Origin: a virus
Taxonomy: Duplodnaviria; Heunggongvirae; Uroviricota; Caudoviricetes
Length of the DNA: 16,579 nucleotides
IMG/VR virus record: IMGVR_UViG_2721755721_000006
Direction: 5' to 3' (one strand)
Shown: positions 1-12,520 of the stretch, piece by piece
Numbering within the stretch: the stretch's first letter is position 1
Layout: every line of letters begins with the position of its first letter
Translations under genes and position numbers: made by a program
The notes under the pieces: generated by a model
What the model saw: only the letters and a program-made list of their open reading frames with translations
Database searches by the model: none
Told to the model about the DNA's origin: nothing

Positions 1-210
1 ATGAAACACCGGACCTGGATCACTGAAGCTTTACGTCTTCACTTTGAAGAACATTTACCCCGGGTTGTGGCCGGGCGTCGCCTGAGTGTACCAAAATCAA
101 CAGTTTGTAGTATGTTCGTGCGCTTTCGGAGAGCTGGCCTTTCGTGGCCTTTGCCCGCAGGCATGTCGGAGCAGGAACTTGATGCCTGCCTTTACGGACA
201 ATTTTCCACG
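1..210 (+). pseudogene. IS21-family IstA transposase, N-terminal fragment (HTH region only)
   Basis: Translation of 1-210 (…RRLSVPKSTV…RRAGLSWPLP…MSEQELDA…) matches the HTH and GLSWPLP-type motif I remember from IS21 IstA N-termini. The rest of IstA and any IstB are absent. The frame runs on into an unrelated IS66 TnpA-like segment, so this is a remnant. Confidence 0.4.
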
Positions 211-255
211 GTACCAGTCGTACGTCCTGAAAGCACCGTTATATCCGAAGCCCCC

Positions 256-609
256 GTGGTAAAAAAACGTCCCCGGCGGCCCAACTTCCCTTATGAGTTT
301 AAAATCGCCTTAGTGGAGCAGTCACTACAGCCCGGAGCCTGTGTGGCGCAGATCGCCCGGGAAAACGGAATCAACGATAACCTGCTCTTCAACTGGCGCC
401 ATCAATACCGGAAAGGTGGCCTGCTGCCTTCCGGAAAAAATATGCCGGCACTGCTTCCCGTGACGTTAACGCCGGAGCCGGATAATAAAATCCCGGCCCC
501 CGCACAGGAACCAGAGCAGATAAATACACCGTCCGACAGTCTGTGTTGTGAGCTGGTTCTGCCGGCCGGAACTCTCAGGCTTAAAGGTAAACTGACGCCG
601 GCGTTATTA
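256..609 (+). pseudogene. IS66-family TnpA (orf1)-like remnant, cut at the IRR of the intact IS66 copy
   Basis: The peptide RPRRPNFPYEFKIALVEQSLQPGACVAQIARENGINDNLLFNWRHQYRKGG aligns directly with the intact IS66 TnpA at 2632-3057 (EPRKNYSNEFKLRMVELASQPGACVAQIARENGVNDNVIFKWLRLWQNEG). A possible GTG start lies at 256. Homology ends at 609, where the IS66 terminal repeat GTAAGCG begins. No tnpB or tnpC follows on this strand. Confidence 0.6.
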
Positions 610-610
610 C

Positions 611-634
611 GTAAGCGTCAACGGAGCACCGTAT
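611..634. repeat. IS66 terminal inverted repeat (tnpC-proximal end)
   Basis: GTAAGCGTCAACGGAGCACCGTAT, compared with the reverse complement of 3119-3142 (GTAAGCGTAAACTGACCGCCGTAT). Confidence 0.6.
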
Positions 635-640
635 TGACGC

Positions 641-2254
641 TTATTTATTGGTGAGTACTACGTTCCATGGCAGGAGTTCATCAACTCGGTTGGAAGGCCA
701 TTCCGGCAGTACGCTCAGGATATGGCGCAGATACGCTTCCGGATCGATACCGTTCAGACGGCAGGTGCCGATCAGCCCGTACAACAGTGCTCCACGCTCG
801 CCGCCGTGATCGCTGCCAAAGAACATAAAGTTTTTCTTTCCGAGACAGACTGCACGAAGCGCTCTTTCCGCAGCATTATTATCCGCCTCCGCCAGACCGT
901 CATCACTGTAATAACAGAGGGCATCCCACTGATTCAGTACATAGCTGAACGCTTCGCCCAGTCTGGATTTTTTCGACAGCGTACCATTCTTCTCCACCAT
1001 CCATTCATGCAGCGACGTCAGTAACACTTTGCTTCGCTGCTGCCTGACGGCAAGACGCTCTAACTCCGGTAATCCCCGTATTTCATCCTCGATGGCGTAC
1101 AGTTCACTGATTCGCTTCAGGGCTTCTTCTGCCGTCGCACTTTTGCTGCTGATGTATACATCGTGGATTTTTCGCCGGGCATGGGCCCAGCACGCAACTT
1201 CTGTCAGTGCACCACCTTCACGTTCTGCACTGAACAACCTGTCGTAACCTGTGAACGCATCCGCCTGCAGGATACCCCGGAAGGGGCGGAGGTGTTGCTC
1301 CGGGTGTTTCCCCTGCCGGTTCGGCGAGTACGCGAACCAGACCGCTGGAGGAGATGACGAACCCACATTGCGATCATCCCGGACATACGTCCAGATACGC
1401 CCTGTTTTCGCCTTTTTCTGACCCGGTGCCAGTACCTTTACCGGTGTGTCATCAGTGTGAACCTTGCGGGTGTTCATTACATAACGGTACAGGGCATCAT
1501 TCACCGGTGTCATTAACTGGCAGCACGCGTCAACCCAGTTGGAGAGTAAGGCCCGGCTCAGTTCGACACCCTGGCGGGCAAAGATTTCACTCTGACGATA
1601 CAGTGGCAGATGTTCGCAGTATTTTCCCGTTAACACGCGGGCAAGTAATCCGGGGCCCGCGATACCACGCTCTATCGGGCGGGACGGCGCCGGTGCTTCA
1701 ACAATACAGTCACATTTTGTACAGGCTTTTTTTACCCGTTCTGTGCGGATCACTTTCAGGGCACTGCTCACCAGTTCCAGCTGTTCAGCGCTGACTTCCC
1801 CCAGATAATCCAGCTCACCGCCACACTCCGGGCAACAGCTTTCTTCTGGCTCCAGGCGGTGTATTTCACGGGGAAGGTGTGCCGGTAACGGACGACGATG
1901 GCGCGACTGTCGCAACTGGCGGGGAACCTGAGGATCGTCTTCCCGCCCACTGTAACGATCGCTGTCCTGTTCACGTTGTTTCAGCAGAGCCTCAGCCAGT
2001 TCAACTTCACGACGCAGTTTTTCAGAACGGGTACCGAACAGCATCCGGCGCAGTTTTTCTATCTGAGCCCGCAGATGTTCTATTTCCCGTTCATCTTCTT
2101 CGATCTTTTCTTCGGCACGTGTCAGTGCAGAGCGCAGGAAGGCTTCCGTCTCTTCAACCAGACTCAGTTGCTGGTCTTTCTGACGGAGGGCTTCAGCCTG
2201 CTCAGAGAGCAACCTTTCCAGCTCTGCGATGCGAATGAGGTATTTCTGACTCAT
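641..2254 (-). CDS. tnpC: IS66-family transposase TnpC (537 aa)
   Basis: N-terminal coiled-coil/leucine-zipper region, a CPECGG…CTKCDC zinc-finger region and a long DDE-type core. Size and order match IS66 TnpC. Confidence 0.92.
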   Translation of the reverse strand: MSQKYLIRIAELERLLSEQAEALRQKDQQLSLVEETEAFLRSALTRAEEKIEEDEREIEHLRAQIEKLRRMLFGTRSEKLRREVELAEALLKQREQDSDRYSGREDDPQVPRQLRQSRHRRPLPAHLPREIHRLEPEESCCPECGGELDYLGEVSAEQLELVSSALKVIRTERVKKACTKCDCIVEAPAPSRPIERGIAGPGLLARVLTGKYCEHLPLYRQSEIFARQGVELSRALLSNWVDACCQLMTPVNDALYRYVMNTRKVHTDDTPVKVLAPGQKKAKTGRIWTYVRDDRNVGSSSPPAVWFAYSPNRQGKHPEQHLRPFRGILQADAFTGYDRLFSAEREGGALTEVACWAHARRKIHDVYISSKSATAEEALKRISELYAIEDEIRGLPELERLAVRQQRSKVLLTSLHEWMVEKNGTLSKKSRLGEAFSYVLNQWDALCYYSDDGLAEADNNAAERALRAVCLGKKNFMFFGSDHGGERGALLYGLIGTCRLNGIDPEAYLRHILSVLPEWPSNRVDELLPWNVVLTNK

Positions 2255-2284
2255 GACCGTTTTTATAATGCGGTCAGGAGTTTT

Positions 2285-2635
2285 TTACAACATTGTCAGT
2301 GAGTTACGGCTGGATGTTTTTGGCTGACGCCAGTCCAGCTTATCGAGGAGCATTGCCAGTTGCGAGCGGGTAATGGATACCTTGCCGTCACGTACCGCAG
2401 GCCAGATAAACTGGCCTTCCTCCAGGCGTTTGGTGAACAGGCACAGACCATCAGCATCAGCCCAAAGAATTTTGACGGTGTCACCCCGTCGGCCACGGAA
2501 GATAAACAGGTGACCGGAGAAGGGATTATCATTCAGCACATGTTGTACCTGTTCTCCCAGTCCGTTGAAGGATTTACGCATATCGGTAACGCCGGCAACG
2601 AGCCAGATACGGGTACCTGATGGGAGTGAGATCAT
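2285..2635 (-). CDS. tnpB: IS66-family accessory protein TnpB (orf2, 116 aa)
   Basis: MISLPSGTRIWLVAGVTDMRKSFNGL… is the hallmark IS66 Orf2 N-terminus. Its ATGA overlaps the tnpA stop. Confidence 0.92.
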   Translation of the reverse strand: MISLPSGTRIWLVAGVTDMRKSFNGLGEQVQHVLNDNPFSGHLFIFRGRRGDTVKILWADADGLCLFTKRLEEGQFIWPAVRDGKVSITRSQLAMLLDKLDWRQPKTSSRNSLTML

Positions 2636-3057
2636 CTTCCCCTCCCGGTCAGTTCACGGATCAACACTGTGAGCAGCTCTGGCGATGGATTTTCCAGCGT
2701 CATGTTACCGTGACGGAATTCCACCTTGCAGGAACTGGCACTGACTCTGGTCTGAGTGGAAGTGGATAAAGACGGCGCAATGGCCGCCACAGGTTCTTTC
2801 TGCTCATCCGGCGTTATTTCTACAGGTAATAATTCAACGCCAGTGTCAGAAGAGGTCGTTACCGGAAGACGCCGCGAAACACGCCCTTCGTTCTGCCAGA
2901 GCCTGAGCCATTTGAAAATAACATTATCATTGACGCCATTTTCACGTGCAATCTGTGCAACACAAGCTCCAGGTTGTGATGCCAGTTCCACCATACGAAG
3001 TTTGAATTCATTCGAATAGTTTTTACGAGGTTCTTTTCGCCAGTCCTGTAATTCCAT
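2632..3057 (-). CDS. tnpA: IS66-family accessory protein TnpA (orf1, 141 aa, HTH)
   Basis: First gene inside the tnpA-proximal terminal repeat. HTH segment QPGACVAQIARENGVNDN. ATG confirmed at 3055-3057. Confidence 0.9.
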   Translation of the reverse strand: MELQDWRKEPRKNYSNEFKLRMVELASQPGACVAQIARENGVNDNVIFKWLRLWQNEGRVSRRLPVTTSSDTGVELLPVEITPDEQKEPVAAIAPSLSTSTQTRVSASSCKVEFRHGNMTLENPSPELLTVLIRELTGRGR

Positions 3058-3454: not shown

Positions 3455-4333
3455 TCAGACTGCAAGATCCAAGGGAAGATCAGAAATATCCTTTAATCTT
3501 TTACCATTAACCATCACGGAAAGCATGTCAGCTGCATCGCTGAGCCCCAGTATTTCAACTGCTGATATAAGTTCATAAAGCGCAAAATGATACACGCAAT
3601 CTATATCACCAGTACCAAGAGCAATAGACGCCAGACGACTTGGAGTAGGCTCAGCAGTAACAACCATTACATGAGGGAGATTTCCCTTACGGTTGCGAAT
3701 AAGATTTAATGCCTCAGAACGAGCATTCTGGGCCCGGTCGCTTCTTATTGTCCATTTGCAGGAAATACTTGCGTGTAATATTGGTTTCCCACCATTCGAA
3801 CTCCTGAGAGCTGACATGCGGGTAACAGAATCATCCACCAGTAATTCAGGACTGTTGATAACTTGATCACATTCAGGTTCTCTTTCAACAATAATATCTG
3901 GTGAAATCGTATAATCACTCCCCAGTGCAGCAGCTAGCTGAGGATTACTTTTTGCAGCACTATCCAATGCTATAAGATGGGCATATTGTTCATATTTAGC
4001 TATCTCTAATCTGTTTCTACCAGAAACCTGATGTACATTCCATTTTCCAGGGCGTAAGTGGCTGAGTTTAAAAAAGGTTTTTTCTATAAACTCTGCGCAG
4101 ATACTCTCAAACTGATTACCAGATGTTTGCCCTGCAACACGTTCACCAATCGTTTCAGCCTGCAAGAAGCGAGCAATTTCTCTTGCTATAGCTTTACTGT
4201 TTTTGTTACTGCTATCTGCGTTACTAACAACTCCGGCAGTATTAATTGTGAGCGTATTCAGTAACAATTGGGCATGAAACTCCTTTCTGGCTTCAGCAAA
4301 ACCAACTATGCTGTCAACCAAATCTCCATTCAT
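3455..4333 (-). CDS. Type II restriction endonuclease, Cfr10I/NgoMIV-like PD-(D/E)xK family (292 aa from the ATG at 4333)
   Basis: Immediately downstream of the m5C methyltransferase gene. The sequence TGA-AGGAAATCCAGAA-ATG gives a Shine-Dalgarno 9 nt before the ATG at 4331-4333. The protein has PD (in TISPDIIVERE), then SCK 47 residues later, then E 14 residues after the K. The six-frame ORF extends to 4468 but that part overlaps the M gene 3' end. Confidence 0.72.
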   Translation of the reverse strand: MNGDLVDSIVGFAEARKEFHAQLLLNTLTINTAGVVSNADSSNKNSKAIAREIARFLQAETIGERVAGQTSGNQFESICAEFIEKTFFKLSHLRPGKWNVHQVSGRNRLEIAKYEQYAHLIALDSAAKSNPQLAAALGSDYTISPDIIVEREPECDQVINSPELLVDDSVTRMSALRSSNGGKPILHASISCKWTIRSDRAQNARSEALNLIRNRKGNLPHVMVVTAEPTPSRLASIALGTGDIDCVYHFALYELISAVEILGLSDAADMLSVMVNGKRLKDISDLPLDLAV

Positions 4334-4346
4334 TTCTGGATTTCCT

Positions 4347-5471
4347 TCAGGCTGCTTGACTATTCTTACTGATGTTATTCTTATACCGTCCCTGCAAAAC
4401 TCCATACACATATTGTGCGATTTTTGCCGCAAATAGCGGTGGAACAGCATTCCCGATCTGCTTTGCAATCTCAGTTTTTGAACCGGTAAAAATGAAATTA
4501 TCAGGAAAAGACATTAATCTCGCTGCCTCACGATGAGTTATTGGCCGATCCTCTTCCGGATGTAAATATCGCCCTTTCTCCGGTTTGAAAAACTCAGTAC
4601 GAATCGTTACTGAAGGTCTGTCCCACCACAGACGTCCAAACAAATCGGTCCCTCCAGATTTCTTTTTTAGCCAGCACGCCGGGGTTATATCAGGTCTTTT
4701 TTTCTGTAAATCGAAACGGTTACCTCCTGGTGGAACCGCTTTATATCGCTCCAGAGAAACAGGTGTGGGATTACGCCCAAAATGTAAGTTCAGCGGAGGA
4801 AGTTCATTACGAATATCAGTTCCAACAGGAGCAGGTAAGTCACCAATTGCATCACGCGTACAGACCCATTCAGGCAAAGCGACATCCTTATCAGGGGAAC
4901 GATGCGTTGGTGCTGGCGGGAACGCCGGAATACTATGCACATCGAAGAGTTCTCGTTTGATACCGATTGCTATCGTTCGTTTTCTTGTCTGAGGTACTCC
5001 ATAGTCAGCAGTATTCAACACCATTGGATTAAGCAGAATAAAGCCCATGGATTTCGCTCTAAACGTAATGTCCGCAAACTCATCGCTTATCAGCAATCCG
5101 GGGACATTTTCCATGACGAACATACAAGCCCTTGAACGCTCAATGACATCCATATAAGGCTCCCACAATGCTCTTCGGTGATCACCATAACGATTCTTAT
5201 TCAATAAACTGAATCCCTGACACGGGGGGCCACCTATGACCACATCAGCCTCAGGAACAGTATTGCTGGATGCCCACTCCTCAATATTTGCCTGAACTCC
5301 ATGCAAACCAAAATTGGCATTGTAGGTATTTATAGCTGCAGCATTATTATCAATAGCAAGGATACTTTCAAAGTAGTCAGACATCTCTCCATGAAGAAAA
5401 CCATAAGATAATCCACCTGCCCCACAAAAGAGGTCTATCACTCTGAATTTATTTAATTCTTTCATCCGCAT
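4347..5471 (-). CDS. DNA (cytosine-5)-methyltransferase (374 aa)
   Basis: Canonical m5C methyltransferase motifs in order: FCGAGG (I), GGPPCQGFS (IV, catalytic Cys), ENV (VI), QTRKR (VIII), GNAVPP (X). There is no N-terminal HTH extension. Confidence 0.93.
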   Translation of the reverse strand: MRMKELNKFRVIDLFCGAGGLSYGFLHGEMSDYFESILAIDNNAAAINTYNANFGLHGVQANIEEWASSNTVPEADVVIGGPPCQGFSLLNKNRYGDHRRALWEPYMDVIERSRACMFVMENVPGLLISDEFADITFRAKSMGFILLNPMVLNTADYGVPQTRKRTIAIGIKRELFDVHSIPAFPPAPTHRSPDKDVALPEWVCTRDAIGDLPAPVGTDIRNELPPLNLHFGRNPTPVSLERYKAVPPGGNRFDLQKKRPDITPACWLKKKSGGTDLFGRLWWDRPSVTIRTEFFKPEKGRYLHPEEDRPITHREAARLMSFPDNFIFTGSKTEIAKQIGNAVPPLFAAKIAQYVYGVLQGRYKNNISKNSQAA

Positions 5472-5554
5472 CCATATGCCTCAGATTAATGTTGAGCGTC
5501 TTACAGGACGCGTAATGTTAACTGGGGCTTTCTCTATCTGCCTTTTGGTGTTCA

Positions 5555-5579
5555 TGCCTGAGGCAGACAGCCTCAGGCA
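5555..5579. repeat. Perfect 9-bp inverted repeat (TGCCTGAGG-N7-CCTCAGGCA) between queH-like and the methyltransferase gene
   Basis: Stem 5555-5563 pairs with 5571-5579 around the loop CAGACAG. No U-tract follows on either strand, so it is not a canonical terminator. It sits about 85-100 bp upstream of the M start. Confidence 0.4.
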
Positions 5580-5649
5580 CCCGCAGCAATTCTACTTAAC
5601 TCACGTCACCTCGCCAATATGAAATCAATCAGAAAGGTGATCCATAAAA

Positions 5650-6336
5650 TCACTCCTTCTCTTCTTTTCCGTAGTGGAGTTGGCCAATTTTGATAAGAGG
5701 GCGTCCCTGAGATTTGCGGTGTAGATTGGTATCGCGCAGAGAATACACACAGCCACAATATTCCTGCTGATAGAATTTTTCGCGCTTGCTGATTTCAATC
5801 ATACGGGACGAGCCGCCCTGCTTGCGCCAGTTATAATCCCAGTACACCATACCCGGATAATGCGCAACAGCTCGCCGCCCACACTCGTTAACCTGCTGCA
5901 TATTTTTCCAGCGTGAAATGCCCAGTGAACTACTGATCACACTGAAACCATTTTCAGCAGCGTACAACGCTGTCCGCTCAAAACGCATGTCAAAACACAT
6001 GGTACAACGGATCCCCCTCTCAGGCTCCCATTCCATTCCTTTGGCACGTTCAAACCAGTTGTCGGTGTCGTAATCAGCATCGATAAACGGCACGCCGTGT
6101 TGTTCAGCAAAGCGAATATTTTCATCCTTACGAATTAAATACTCTTTCTGAGGATGAATGTTCGGGTTGTAGAAAAAGATGGTGTAGTCGATTCCCGAGG
6201 CCTGAAGCGCCTCCATCACTTCACCGGAACATGGAGCACAGCAAGAGTGCAGTAGTAGTTTGTTTGCCCCGTTTGGAAGCTCCAATTTAGGCCGTTTGAA
6301 ATCAGCAATAGTCATAAATATTTTTATTGGGGTCAT
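5650..6336 (-). CDS. queH: QueH-like protein (DUF208; putative epoxyqueuosine reductase family)
   Basis: Shows the DUF208/QueH signatures [24 protein letters not shown] and QEYCGCVY. An alternative ATG start at 6315 would shorten the N-terminus. No obvious Shine-Dalgarno at either start. Confidence 0.75.
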
Positions 6337-10317: not shown

Positions 10318-10794
10318 ATGCTTAGTGGTAAAGACTTAGGCCGAGCGATAGAGCAGGCCATTAACAAAAAAATTGCATCAGGAGCCGTCAAATCAAAGGC
10401 GGAAATCGCACGTCATTTCAAAGTCCAACCACCATCAATCCATGACTGGATTAAGAAAGGTTCGATAAGTAAAGACAAACTTCCAGAACTATGGCGTTTC
10501 TTTTCTGATGTGGTTGGTCCAGAGCATTGGGGGCTTAACGAATACCCCATACCAACCCCATCCACTTCAGATACAAAAAGTGAACTTTTAGACATAAACA
10601 GCCTTTATCAAGCCGCCTCTGATGAAAAAAGAGCAATTGTGGCTTTCCTCTTATCTGGAAATGCTACGGAGCCTAGTTGGGTTGATCATGACGTTCGCGC
10701 CTACATTGCCGCAATGGAAATGAAGGTAGCTAACTATCTGAAAAATCAAGAATCAAAACGGAAAAGCCAGAACATCACCAAGACAGGAACTTAA
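10318..10794 (+). CDS. Prophage repressor, RacR-like (158 aa, HTH, no recognisable LexA-type autocleavage domain)
   Basis: Divergent from the Cro-like gene. TAGGAGA lies 10 nt before the ATG at 10318. HTH segment KSKAEIARHFKVQPPSIHDWIKKGS. Flanked on both sides by the same operator dyads. Confidence 0.72.
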   Translation: MLSGKDLGRAIEQAINKKIASGAVKSKAEIARHFKVQPPSIHDWIKKGSISKDKLPELWRFFSDVVGPEHWGLNEYPIPTPSTSDTKSELLDINSLYQAASDEKRAIVAFLLSGNATEPSWVDHDVRAYIAAMEMKVANYLKNQESKRKSQNITKTGT

Positions 10795-10887: not shown

Positions 10888-10931
10888 ATTAGGCATAGCC
10901 TATTGACAAGTAATTAGGCATTTCCTATAGT
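10888..10931 (+). promoter_or_regulatory. PL-like sigma70 promoter with overlapping operator dyads (OL analogue)
   Basis: TTGACA (10903-10908), a 17-nt spacer, then TATAGT (10926-10931). Operator dyads TAGGCATAGCCTA (10890-10902) and TAGGCATTTCCTA (10915-10927) have the same core as the OR sites. Confidence 0.6.
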
Positions 10932-11116
10932 TTTCCCATACCAACCCATCCCGTCCCACACAATACAGGGCAATACCTCGAGTTACCAGGCAGTGGTCAG
11001 GGGTTAAGTAGCCAGCCCGAGGCGTAAGAACATGACGGCAGGGTTCAACTTTAATAACTATGCAGCAGGTTTTTGTTCCGCTACCCCGGCGTTAAGGGGA
11101 AACAGAGGGTTTCTCA

Positions 11117-11473
11117 GTGGGCGAAGTCAAACATCAGAATGGAAGGCATCCCGGGATCGGCAAAGAAGCAGCAATGGCGCTTTATATTGACATCAGCGCC
11201 ATTGCAGGACAGGTAAGAGTTATCAGAGCGGTAACTAAGCGGTATGCGCCTTTACTTCAGAAAGTCTCTGGTGAGTGCACCGAAGATATTGTCAACGATT
11301 TCGTCATCGAACTGCGAGGACTCATCTTCAGTTACAAGGTGACCACAATTTTTGCAGATGGCTCCCGCGAAACTGTCAGAGCCCTGCGGCTTAAAGGATG
11401 TATCAAAGACTTCGCCACCACATTCTGGGCAAGAAAACTTGATTGTATTCATAACCAATTTCCTCTCGAGTAA
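11117..11473 (+). CDS. Hypothetical early-left ORF (118 aa); mutually exclusive with the minus-strand zinc-ribbon ORF
   Basis: First ORF downstream of the PL-like promoter and co-oriented with it. GTG start preceded by GAGGG at 7 nt. It is in exact codon phase with an antisense ORF, so one of the two is probably a mirror artefact. Confidence 0.3.
   Translation: MGEVKHQNGRHPGIGKEAAMALYIDISAIAGQVRVIRAVTKRYAPLLQKVSGECTEDIVNDFVIELRGLIFSYKVTTIFADGSRETVRALRLKGCIKDFATTFWARKLDCIHNQFPLE
11252..11452 (-). CDS. Small zinc-ribbon protein with an acidic C-terminal tail (66 aa); alternative to the plus-strand ORF
   Basis: ATG at 11450-11452 preceded by GAGAGGAAATTGGTT. Contains CPECGG…(20 aa)…CKNCGH followed by the tail EDESSQFDDEIVDNIF. 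Convergent with PL-like transcription. Confidence 0.35.
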   Translation of the reverse strand: MNTIKFSCPECGGEVFDTSFKPQGSDSFAGAICKNCGHLVTEDESSQFDDEIVDNIFGALTRDFLK

Positions 11474-11544
11474 CAGACCCCTCAGAGGATACCACCTCGC
11501 CTGACGTGGTTAAAAGCAGGCAACGCTAACCACAAGGAGCCGAC

Positions 11545-11763
11545 ATGCAGAAACGAGAACCCGTCATCATCGCGCCAGACTATACCGATGATGAACTTTA
11601 TGAGTGGATGCACCAGAAAATTAATGCAGCGCAGGATCTGAAATGGGCCAATGAAGCCAGGGCTAAGCAGGCTGAAAATCTGTCCGCTCTGGAGCAGGAT
11701 ATCACCAGGCTGGAAAAAGCAGCGGCATTAAGCATTGCCAGAATGATTACATACCCGCGTTAA
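11545..11763 (+). CDS. Small hypothetical early-left protein (72 aa)
   Basis: Consensus Shine-Dalgarno AAGGAG 5 nt before the ATG. Co-oriented with the PL-like promoter. No antisense competitor ORF. Confidence 0.55.
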   Translation: MQKREPVIIAPDYTDDELYEWMHQKINAAQDLKWANEARAKQAENLSALEQDITRLEKAAALSIARMITYPR

Positions 11764-12331
11764 TAGCTAACCAACGAAGCTAAGGTTGGTAATTAAGGAG
11801 TTCTCCACGGGTGAGGTGGAGTGCGTGCGCCGGACACGGGTGAGCATCCGGCACTGACAGTTTACTGAAAGGATATTTCCCTGAAAAGTCAGACCATAAC
11901 GCGAAAGCGCACGGCGAGGTAGCTGGTTCATAGATAGCCTGTCGTTAAATTTTCGTCGACCGTGCGCTTCCGGTTGTGGCAATCCGCGAAATGGCGCGGC
12001 GGTAAGTATGGCGGGGTTATTCCTTCCCCCGTTGAGGACACCGGGTTGTCAGGTTGACCATACGCTTAAGTGACAACCCCGCTGCAACGCCCTCTGTTAT
12101 CAATTTTCTGGTGACGTTTGGCGGTATCAGTTTTACTCCGTGACTGCTCTGCCGCCCTTTTTAAAGTGAATTTTGTGATGCGGTGAATGCGGCTGAGCGC
12201 ACGCGGAACAGTTAAAACCAAAAACAGTGTTATGGGTGGATTCTCTGTATCCGGCGTTAATTGTTAACTGGTTAACGTCACCTGGAGGCACCAGGCACTG
12301 CATCACAAAATTCATTGTTGAGGACGCGATA

Positions 12332-12520
12332 ATGGAAACGTTATTACCAAACGTTAATACGTCTGAAGGTTGTTTTGATATTGGTGTTCTGCTCAGTAAC
12401 CGGGAGTTTACTGAAGATGCCATTAATATGAGGAAATATGAGCCTTATCTGCTCAATGATAATTCCATACTTTCCCGAATTGCTCTTCTTGAACTTGGTA
12501 TTTTCGGAGAACGTCAATGA
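12332..12520 (+). CDS. Small hypothetical protein (62 aa), first gene of a translationally coupled pair
   Basis: ATG at 12332 with AGGA 7 nt upstream. Its stop overlaps the next start in an ATGA at 12517-12520. The six-frame ORF begins further upstream at a GTG at 12227 that has no Shine-Dalgarno. Confidence 0.5.
   Translation: METLLPNVNTSEGCFDIGVLLSNREFTEDAINMRKYEPYLLNDNSILSRIALLELGIFGERQ

Follow-up and report, generated by a model that had tools for sequence, protein, structure and literature searches.

Long antisense coding overlaps in bacteria and phages are few and contested, and most candidates rest on expression data for young, poorly conserved open reading frames (ORFs). The antisense genes of Escherichia coli O157:H7 (nog1/citC, laoB, asa, ano, pop/ompA and others), in which one ORF lies wholly inside an opposite-strand ORF, have RNA-seq, ribosome profiling and phenotypes behind them (PMC4683798, PMC5810103, PMC6294744, PMC5960689, PMC7103648, PMC9927249). 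A pair of the same layout is described here from the window, as the whole 16,579-nucleotide (nt) stretch that was analysed is called (IMG/VR virus record IMGVR_UViG_2721755721_000006, Caudoviricetes; an E. coli Rac/Qin-like lambdoid prophage by type). At 11117-11473, directly behind the early-left promoter of a dicBF-type operon, a four-cysteine zinc-ribbon gene of 66 amino acids (aa) on the minus strand is nested within a 118-aa ORF on the plus strand. Whereas the embedded gene of the O157:H7 cases is usually young and narrowly distributed, both partners of the window pair have been retained in prophages of Escherichia, Citrobacter, Klebsiella and Enterobacter, the embedded gene is the one from the older and broader family, and the pair moves as one module. 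It is the reverse of the usual candidate, with unusually good comparative support and evidence from sequence only. The comparisons favour, with modest confidence, a conserved nested antisense gene pair in which both strands code for protein. If this is true, the dual coding would be a rare, evolutionarily conserved antisense case; the zinc-ribbon family being already known, its antisense pairing with a conserved plus ORF would be an addition to the small class of antisense overlapping gene pairs and not a new kind of system.

The surroundings of the locus are well studied: they comprise the immunity region and the toxic dicBF operon of E. coli prophages. In the K-12 Qin prophage the operon (dicBp-ydfA-ydfB-ydfC-dicF-dicB-ydfD) yields one polycistronic RNA from dicBp through ydfABC-dicF-dicB, which is shaped by RNase III and RNase E, and both DicB and DicF are toxic (10.1101/2023.04.14.536235). 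The window resembles it in the repressor gene, the promoter, a near-identical leader of about 170 nt, ydfC, the DicF RNA, dicB and ydfD. It differs in carrying the sense/antisense pair in the place of ydfA and ydfB, both of which lie on the operon strand in Qin, and in encoding a RacR-type repressor instead of DicA.

Both window proteins fall into existing families. The minus ORF is a member of NF047912, with the same length, two CxxC pairs and the same prophage position; the entry is named after ECs_2282 of E. coli O157:H7 Sakai and is silent on an overlapping ORF on the opposite strand. The plus ORF belongs to PHROG 21318, which was built from gene calls, so that membership records that annotators called the ORF and not that it is expressed. 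The Lar/Ral restriction-alleviation proteins (TIGR03655, PF14354) are likewise small CxxC...CxxC proteins of phage early regions, yet the match to them is weak (TIGR03655 E 0.014; phrog_6422 E 0.0098; PF14354 2.8e-4 for one family member) and the likeness is that of a generic zinc ribbon. Shadow ORFs in the exactly antiparallel frame have the same register as the window pair; unlike these, the window-type plus frame is open in every lineage and has its own conserved start and a non-overlapping extension that appears to be under selection.

Geometry of the ORF pair

The pair comprises the following features:

11117-11473, plus strand: ORF of 118 aa from GTG 11117 to TAA 11473, co-oriented with the early operon; PHROG 21318; Shine-Dalgarno (SD) sequence AGAGGG at 11104-11109, 7 nt 5' of the GTG.
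11252-11452, minus strand: zinc-ribbon gene of 66 aa (ATG 11452 to TAA 11252), ECs_2282 family, CxxC-21-CxxC; lies entirely within the plus ORF, antisense and in register.
11461-11467, minus strand: SD sequence GAGAGGA of the zinc gene, 8 nt 5' of the ATG, read from the sequence.
11174-11251, plus strand: non-overlapping N-terminal part of the plus ORF, from the conserved Met (ATG 11174) to the complement of the zinc stop codon; supported by the conservation of the Met and by the ratio of nonsynonymous to synonymous differences (pN/pS).

Within the overlap each codon of one frame is the reverse complement of a codon in the other (11456-11117 = 339 = 3 x 113), and codon position 1 of either frame is position 3 of the other. 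Both strands are open over the overlap of about 200 bp (198 bp), and each frame is intact, with a start codon and ribosome-binding site of its own. The minus ORF, which extends to 68 aa from TTG 11458 in the program-made ORF list, encodes MNTIKFSCPECGG...CKNCGH...DDEIVDNIF with cysteines at positions 8, 11, 33 and 36. The coordinates thus bear out what the first-pass annotation of the window, made from the letters alone, had said of the layout: two ORFs with exactly antiparallel codons, an acceptable SD sequence on each and a four-cysteine zinc-ribbon geometry.

Since antisense in-register stops come only from TTA, CTA and TCA codons, long open shadows are common. With local codon usage the antisense frame of this 66-codon zinc gene is open with a probability of about 0.2, which is unremarkable for a single sequence, and the significance of the pair rests on the comparative data only.

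The zinc-ribbon gene

The convergent zinc-ribbon gene is almost certainly real, with zinc binding predicted from its cysteines. It had been described as hidden, which does not hold: NF047912 (ECs_2282_CxxC) is a curated family whose hidden Markov model matches residues 4-59 over model positions 1-56 of 60 (57.3 bits, cutoff 37, E 1e-15), and the Prokaryotic Genome Annotation Pipeline (PGAP) calls the gene in E. coli genomes at this position, flanked by racR and ydfC and on the minus strand. Citrobacter, Klebsiella and Enterobacter have relatives with 60-70% identity, every one of exactly 66 aa, and this length is kept without indels in all close lineages, down to 45% identity. A profile search of 1.8 billion cluster representatives recovered a wider family of 81 clusters, mostly of about 65 aa, and the four cysteines are invariant in all 31 aligned members.

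Substitutions tell the same story. Among 25 distinct E. coli DNA variants, 15 of the 18 polymorphic sites fall at zinc codon position 3 (phase 15/1/2; binomial p = 1.9e-5), so that the two frames, which codon statistics had been said to be unable to tell apart, are cleanly separated by substitution phase. Two further counts (29/6/9 and 46/15/32) are likewise highest at zinc position 3, which is plus position 1. The 25 variants encode 6 versions of the zinc protein against 19 of the plus protein. By the Nei-Gojobori method, pN/pS of the zinc frame is 0.12 in the E. coli clade and 0.30 in the other clades, and a set with a single sequence from each clade gives 0.35; no other frame has so low a value in the overlap. 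By these measures the zinc frame is under strong purifying selection.

These data also bear on the reading in which only the plus ORF is real, as the first early-left gene, and the zinc ORF is its shadow. The plus ORF is co-oriented with the operon and is the one annotated in the phage records LR597642 and LC567836 and in the RefSeq genome of EDL933. In EDL933 (L128, NZ_CP008957.1 1848502-1848801) the zinc ORF carries a nonsense change at codon 14 (E14*, GAA to TAA), which reads as Phe to Leu in an intact plus frame; a 1-nt deletion separates the equivalents of GTG 11117 and ATG 11174, and PGAP annotates a 99-aa plus ORF there. The same nonsense allele occurs in one IMG/VR locus (L080). A plus-only gene nevertheless predicts the opposite substitution phase to the one observed, with its pile-up on plus position 1, and does not fit a zinc frame with the lowest pN/pS of the six, a fixed length, a conserved SD and ATG, or four cysteines that are invariant in a broad family, also in unrelated contexts that have no plus N-terminus. 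The substitution and family evidence for the zinc frame excludes this reading for practical purposes, and the probability left to it is very small.

The remnant in EDL933 has been recorded before: a survey of embedded antisense ORFs lists it, in its BLAST table, as matching ECs_2282 (10.1101/2020.11.18.388249), and its coordinates were not found in the portions of ribosome-profiling tables that were examined. At the window locus a single-base change can destroy either frame and leave the protein of the other as it is: A11378T turns plus AGA into TGA and zinc TCT into TCA (Ser), and C11323A turns zinc GAG (E44) into TAG and plus CTC into CTA (Leu).

None of the Pfam zinc-ribbon families searched (Zn_Ribbon_TF, Zn_ribbon_3, DUF5795 and others) reached its gathering threshold with the zinc protein, the best being DUF5795 with 23.4 bits against 27; TIGR03655 (Lar) scored 15.7 bits (E 0.014), below its cutoff of 39.6; PDB profile searches with the zinc family and with the plus family returned nothing meaningful; and a profile search of genome contigs gave generic zinc-ribbon matches inside large proteins only. 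The C-terminal part is predicted to be helical at low confidence. The acidic tail that had been likened to protein-interaction tails is real in the enterobacterial clade, but it is specific to that clade, and a basic or amphipathic helix takes its place across the wider family.

Several family members were set apart. In Enterobacter hormaechei (P0009, 99 aa) the zinc protein is annotated with a 33-residue N-terminal extension, and the same extended ORF is found at locus L108 (2402-2701); the extension is conserved nowhere else and is probably an over-long gene call. Two distant relatives (P0015 and P0016, 38-41% identity to the query), on contigs that look GC-rich by eye, have open antisense frames, but these lack the plus N-terminus and are uninformative on dual coding. 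A further candidate (P0014) lies inside a major facilitator superfamily transporter gene and is probably not an orthologue.

Conservation of the plus frame across lineages

Across lineages the plus frame is kept open, its start is conserved and its non-overlapping part is under purifying selection, as far as the alignments tell. In each of ten divergent versions, from seven lineages, the frame can be read across the full length of the zinc gene, the most distant of which has 45% zinc-protein identity; the sole plus-frame stop, at zinc codon 2 in two lineages, costs two residues. Given the zinc proteins and local codon usage, openness has a probability of 0.09-0.37 per lineage and of 1.7e-5 if the lineages are independent, and a conservative hand count of distinct Ser/Leu codon states gives about 0.003. 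Evolution was also simulated (with a simple mutation model and a tree built by the unweighted pair group method with arithmetic mean), the zinc protein alone being under selection and synonymous divergence being set to the observed level: nine tips were all open in at most 0.2% of the replicates of any setting (1 in 2,500 overall), with a mean of 2.5-3.1 open tips of nine. In eight neighbouring genes taken as controls, this antisense frame is broken by 1-5 stops in every case.

Constraint on the plus protein is also visible within the overlap. Plus-frame pN/pS is 0.62-0.66 in the nine-sequence and one-per-clade sets and 0.75 in the non-E. coli clades, against 1.26-3.33 in the antisense frames of the eight control genes and averages of 0.9-1.4 in the zinc-only simulations, of which the observed values lie within the lowest 0-3.6%. 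Among the two-fold codons that leave the zinc protein unchanged, 11 of 13 C/T-ending codons vary, which exchanges Ile/Val, Lys/Glu or Ala/Thr in the plus protein, against one of six A/G-ending codons, where variation would exchange Phe/Leu; the single varying case is Leu/Leu. Control genes have no such asymmetry (26% vs 21%), and this pattern (Fisher p = 0.0095, in a test devised post hoc, after the data had been seen) suggests that synonymous codon choice in the zinc gene spares the plus protein.

Outside the overlap the plus ORF has a further 27-36 codons, from the zinc stop back to a conserved Met. In five lineages (L002, L006, L007, L008 and L094) an AGGAG, GGAGG or GAGG stands 5-10 nt ahead of this Met; in these five the Met and its SD site are the exact edge of the conserved block. 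Over the 25-27 codons of this N-terminal part the plus frame has the smallest pN/pS of the six, 0.35 [0.21-0.53] in the clades other than E. coli and 0.42 [0.29-0.62] when each clade contributes one sequence. Among 45 clusters (93-126 aa) the motif M-T-L-x-V-D-x-S-A...Q...P-L-L is retained even where identity falls to 37%. The phrog_21318 profile aligns with the window ORF from ATG 11174 onwards, residues 1-99 matching profile positions 1-99 (223.4 bits, E 4.6e-67), and the Klebsiella and Citrobacter plus ORFs match PHROG 21318 too.

The start of the ORF varies. In L096-L098 it is GTG or ATG, with the same SD as in the window. In three Citrobacter prophages (L002, L003, L106) a 174-aa plus ORF results from an in-frame fusion to the upstream gene (phrog_23433, residues 4-77) and retains the internal Met and GGAGG SD of the PHROG 21318 part. 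In another lineage (L009 and L107-L125) the plus ORF has 126 aa: the conserved Met has become TTG and the start lies 32 codons further upstream, in a lineage-specific extension (MSTSANRKTIKLPAGETFAPISNKCKSCGYVE) that contains a CxxC; at L108 the 126-aa ORF is the first after a cI-like repressor gene.

Weighing dual coding against a shadow frame

The serious competitor holds that only the zinc gene is functional and that the plus ORF is a shadow, incidentally translated or kept open so that ribosomes prevent Rho-type termination before ydfC-dicF-dicB, its amino-acid sequence being irrelevant. Support for it comes from the lineage to which the window belongs, and the points that follow count against dual coding. 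Within this E. coli lineage the overlap gives a plus-frame pN/pS of 1.84, within the range of ordinary shadow frames; dSN/dSS is 0.94, with too few doubly synonymous sites for the ratio to be useful; and the N-terminal value of 0.52 [0.28-1.06] is not significant. The 19 plus-protein variants that come from 25 DNA variants, an openness that is ordinary in any single lineage, and the preference of PGAP for the zinc ORF wherever it is intact are all as a shadow would have them. Searches of Pfam, NCBIfam and the PDB found no relative of the plus protein, whose family is an uncharacterised PHROG; in family and profile searches neither protein has a characterised relative, and AlphaFold2, run on zinc-protein alignments of 7 and of 31 sequences, gave models of low confidence, with a predicted local distance difference test score (pLDDT) of 57-59.

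The starts of the window ORF are weak as well. The 19 codons headed by GTG 11117 (11117-11173) have no codon periodicity and carry the 1-nt deletion in EDL933, and ATG 11174 has a poor SD and lies within a stem:

11173-11203, strand unassigned: 9-bp inverted repeat AATGGCGCT...AGCGCCATT containing ATG 11174, with a 13-nt loop and a poor U-tract, read from the sequence.

Homologous arms in other lineages read GGCGCT/AGCGYC, where a G.U pair is possible only in the zinc-sense RNA, and the repeat could be a 3' structure of the zinc mRNA or an occluder of ATG 11174. A consensus scan found no intrinsic terminator after the zinc gene. The conserved block 3' of the zinc stop holds this hairpin, with G.U pairs fitting the zinc-sense RNA, and part of its conservation could be RNA structure. 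In the same N-terminal segment the wobble-sharing frame also has a low pN/pS, though with stops and without a start. The simple mutation model and tree of the simulations belong on this side of the balance too. An OLGenie-style dNN/dNS ratio computed with our own script (plus frame 0.38 [0.25-0.53]) was set aside as unspecific, ordinary neighbours giving 0.24-0.9, and polymorphism in the L009-type clade (15 unique sequences, phase 4/4/3) is too sparse to be read.

A shadow frame has more difficulty with the comparison across lineages. It would have to be open in ten of ten divergent versions, against at most 0.2% of simulations, and to show, in five lineages, a conserved Met with a strong SD just where conservation stops. 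Openness alone would not account for the non-overlapping pN/pS of 0.35-0.42, where the sequence itself is constrained, and the across-lineage values in the overlap lie under all controls and nearly all simulations, beside a codon choice in the zinc gene that appears to spare the plus protein. On this balance we regard the shadow explanation as doubtful, though it deserves serious consideration, and the plus ORF as quite likely to be a real gene of the module in the family at large. For the window itself the case is even or only slightly better than even: the plus ORF of the E. coli lineage may be under relaxed constraint. The alternative posed in the first-pass annotation, either a missed first gene of the operon or a convergent zinc gene, therefore stands in part: the zinc gene is strongly supported, but exclusivity is not, the plus ORF having its own signs of selection across lineages.

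Signals around the zinc gene and a possible expression switch

Three further elements lie 5' of the zinc gene:

11462-11488, strand unassigned: hairpin 2, between the -10-like motif and the zinc-gene SD, around and just past the plus ORF stop (ViennaRNA, -5.5 to -11.7 kcal/mol).
11486-11513, minus strand: putative zinc-gene promoter, by conserved motif, with a -35-like TTAACC (11513-11508), a 16-nt spacer and an extended -10 TG-n-TATCCT (11494-11486).
11499-11521, strand unassigned: hairpin 1, GCCTG-13 nt-CAGGC, conserved across lineages.

Seven lineages share the order hairpin 1, TGGTATCYT, hairpin 2, purine-rich SD and ATG in otherwise unrelated flanking DNA. The motif TGGTATCYT (GGTATATCCT in L006 and L007) is conserved in all seven despite the different flanks and could mark a zinc-gene promoter, although the putative promoter scores under the threshold of the consensus scan. 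The hairpin 1 stem is altered on both sides in the most distant lineage (L094: GCCGGG...CCCGGC), and hairpin 2 recurs at a constant position in every lineage, built from three different pairs of arms (CCTCTGAG/CTCGAGAGG, CTTGG../..CCAAG and CGGTTCC/GGACCG). RNAalifold on a MAFFT alignment of this region missed the hairpins because their sequences differ between lineages, and single-sequence folds were used. The SD keeps its purine-rich character and its spacing in every lineage (GAAGGA or AAGGAGG). A block of the window comprising the -10-like motif and hairpin 1 (11486-11522) has 100% matches of about 35-37 nt in E. coli records with no ECs_2282 or ydfC annotated under the match, and so may act independently of the zinc gene.

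These signals, together with an orientation that is always convergent with the early promoter, whether on the left (PL) or the right (PR) side, are what would be expected if the minus-strand unit were mainly a regulatory RNA. Such an antisense lock on the first early cistron would lead to RNase III cleavage of the duplex and curb leaky expression of the toxic dicF and dicB in lysogens, the zinc protein being secondary; the shaping of the K-12 dicBF transcript by RNase III and RNase E and the toxicity of its products (10.1101/2023.04.14.536235) agree with this. An antisense RNA needs no reading frame, however, and the zinc frame has a conserved SD and ATG and is under strong purifying selection at the protein level. 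The proposal is improbable as the main function of the unit, and it is compatible with the gene pair instead of replacing it.

Under the gene-pair reading, the minus strand would express the 66-aa four-cysteine protein toward the immunity region, head-on against the early-left promoter, and the plus strand would express the 93-118-aa PHROG 21318 ORF as the first cistron behind that promoter, through about 27 codons of its own and then the whole zinc gene. Both proteins would be made, and convergent transcription would render their expression mutually exclusive: while the RacR-type repressor silenced the early promoter, only the zinc gene could be expressed, and upon derepression the promoter would drive the plus cistron, ydfC, DicF and DicB, with the zinc gene suppressed by collision and antisense pairing. 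The full model, a dual-coding module kept by selection in at least six to seven enterobacterial prophage lineages in which induction flips the locus from the zinc protein (lysogen) to the plus protein (early lytic), as a toggle at the protein level, is tentative, and as a whole we think it unlikely to be correct in every part.

Genomic contexts and annotation

In all contexts found, the early operon and the plus ORF read in one direction and the zinc gene in the other. The pair lies on the PL side, after the repressor gene, in the window and in L001-L005, L008, L094, L096-L098 and L108, sometimes with a toxin-antitoxin pair or another insert in between, and on the PR side, after cro at the place of cII, in L006 and L007. 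This fixed orientation to the early promoter across PL and PR contexts suggests that the pair travels as one module. Searches for related loci with single distant proteins yielded no new lineages, nor did tblastn against phages and plasmids. In two of the E. coli-type prophages (L097, L098) the insert between the immunity repressor gene and the ORF pair is a PaaA2/ParE toxin-antitoxin pair.

Annotation pipelines disagree on the strand. RAST and DDBJ call the plus ORF (LR597642 and LC567836) and PGAP calls the zinc gene wherever it is intact but the plus ORF in EDL933, the single case examined with a nonsense codon in the zinc gene, so that comparative prophage analyses silently mix two different 'genes' at one locus.

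Locus and operon setting

The genes and signals of the early-left operon, all on the plus strand, are as follows:

10318-10794, plus strand: RacR-type immunity repressor gene (NCBIfam NF049929 TransRepsrRacR, 246.8 bits, cutoff 200), named racR in the homologous E. coli locus.
10903-10931, plus strand: early-left (dicBp-like) promoter, TTGACA-17 nt-TATAGT, 11 of 12 consensus matches in a consensus scan.
10937-11106, plus strand: conserved 5' leader, common to prophages with ydfA-ydfB instead of the ORF pair (megablast, pieces 138-303 of the query).
11545-11763, plus strand: ydfC, the next early-left cistron, from annotation in homologous E. coli loci.
12106-12157, plus strand: DicF small RNA (Rfam RF00039, 76.7 bits, gathering score 48).
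12332-12520, plus strand: dicB, cell division inhibitor, named in homologous locus L001 and present in the ORF list.

The description of the plus ORF as the first early-left ORF agrees with this map, the pair lying behind a promoter with 11 of 12 consensus matches, after the RacR-type gene and before ydfC, DicF and dicB. A dicBF-type early-left operon is recognised from the repressor-controlled promoter followed by ydfC, the DicF RNA and dicB, with ydfD too in the homologous locus, and from the position of the promoter, which corresponds to dicBp of the Qin operon. The repressor gene is on the strand of the early-left operon. In pairwise alignment with L127 the sequence is near-identical up to ...GGGGAAA and divergent beyond, which places the module junction at about 11106; the segment from there to 11486 stands in for ydfA-ydfB.

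Leftward of the repressor gene, on the minus strand, lie Cro-like, YdaT-like, O-like and DnaC-like genes, and past dicB, on the plus strand, follow ydfD, a large exonuclease gene with a Pfam 3'-5' exoribonuclease domain at its C-terminal end, xis and int. Of 5426 complete E. coli genomes, 4358 contain at least a fragment of the 1-kb query, and 817 contain 80% or more of it.

Other parts of the window carry accessory genes. An IS66-family element, recognised from translations only, occupies the left end (1-3057), with a transposase-like ORF of 537 aa at 641-2254 on the minus strand, accessory ORFs at 2285-2635 and 2632-3057, and a partial accessory copy at 1-654 on the plus strand. The prophage also carries a type II restriction-modification system at 3455-5471 on the minus strand, as two genes with an overlap of about 120 nt, one for an NgoMIV-type restriction endonuclease (PF09015, E 1e-126) and one for a C-5 cytosine DNA methylase (PF00145). 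At 5402-5582, also on the minus strand, a match to the sok antitoxin RNA (Rfam RF01794, 61 bits vs 59) adjoins and partly overlaps the 5' end of the cytosine methyltransferase gene and suggests a hok/sok-type module beside the restriction-modification genes. Between these and the replication genes, a full-length homologue of the epoxyqueuosine reductase QueH is encoded at 5650-6336 on the minus strand (PF02677, E 1e-65).

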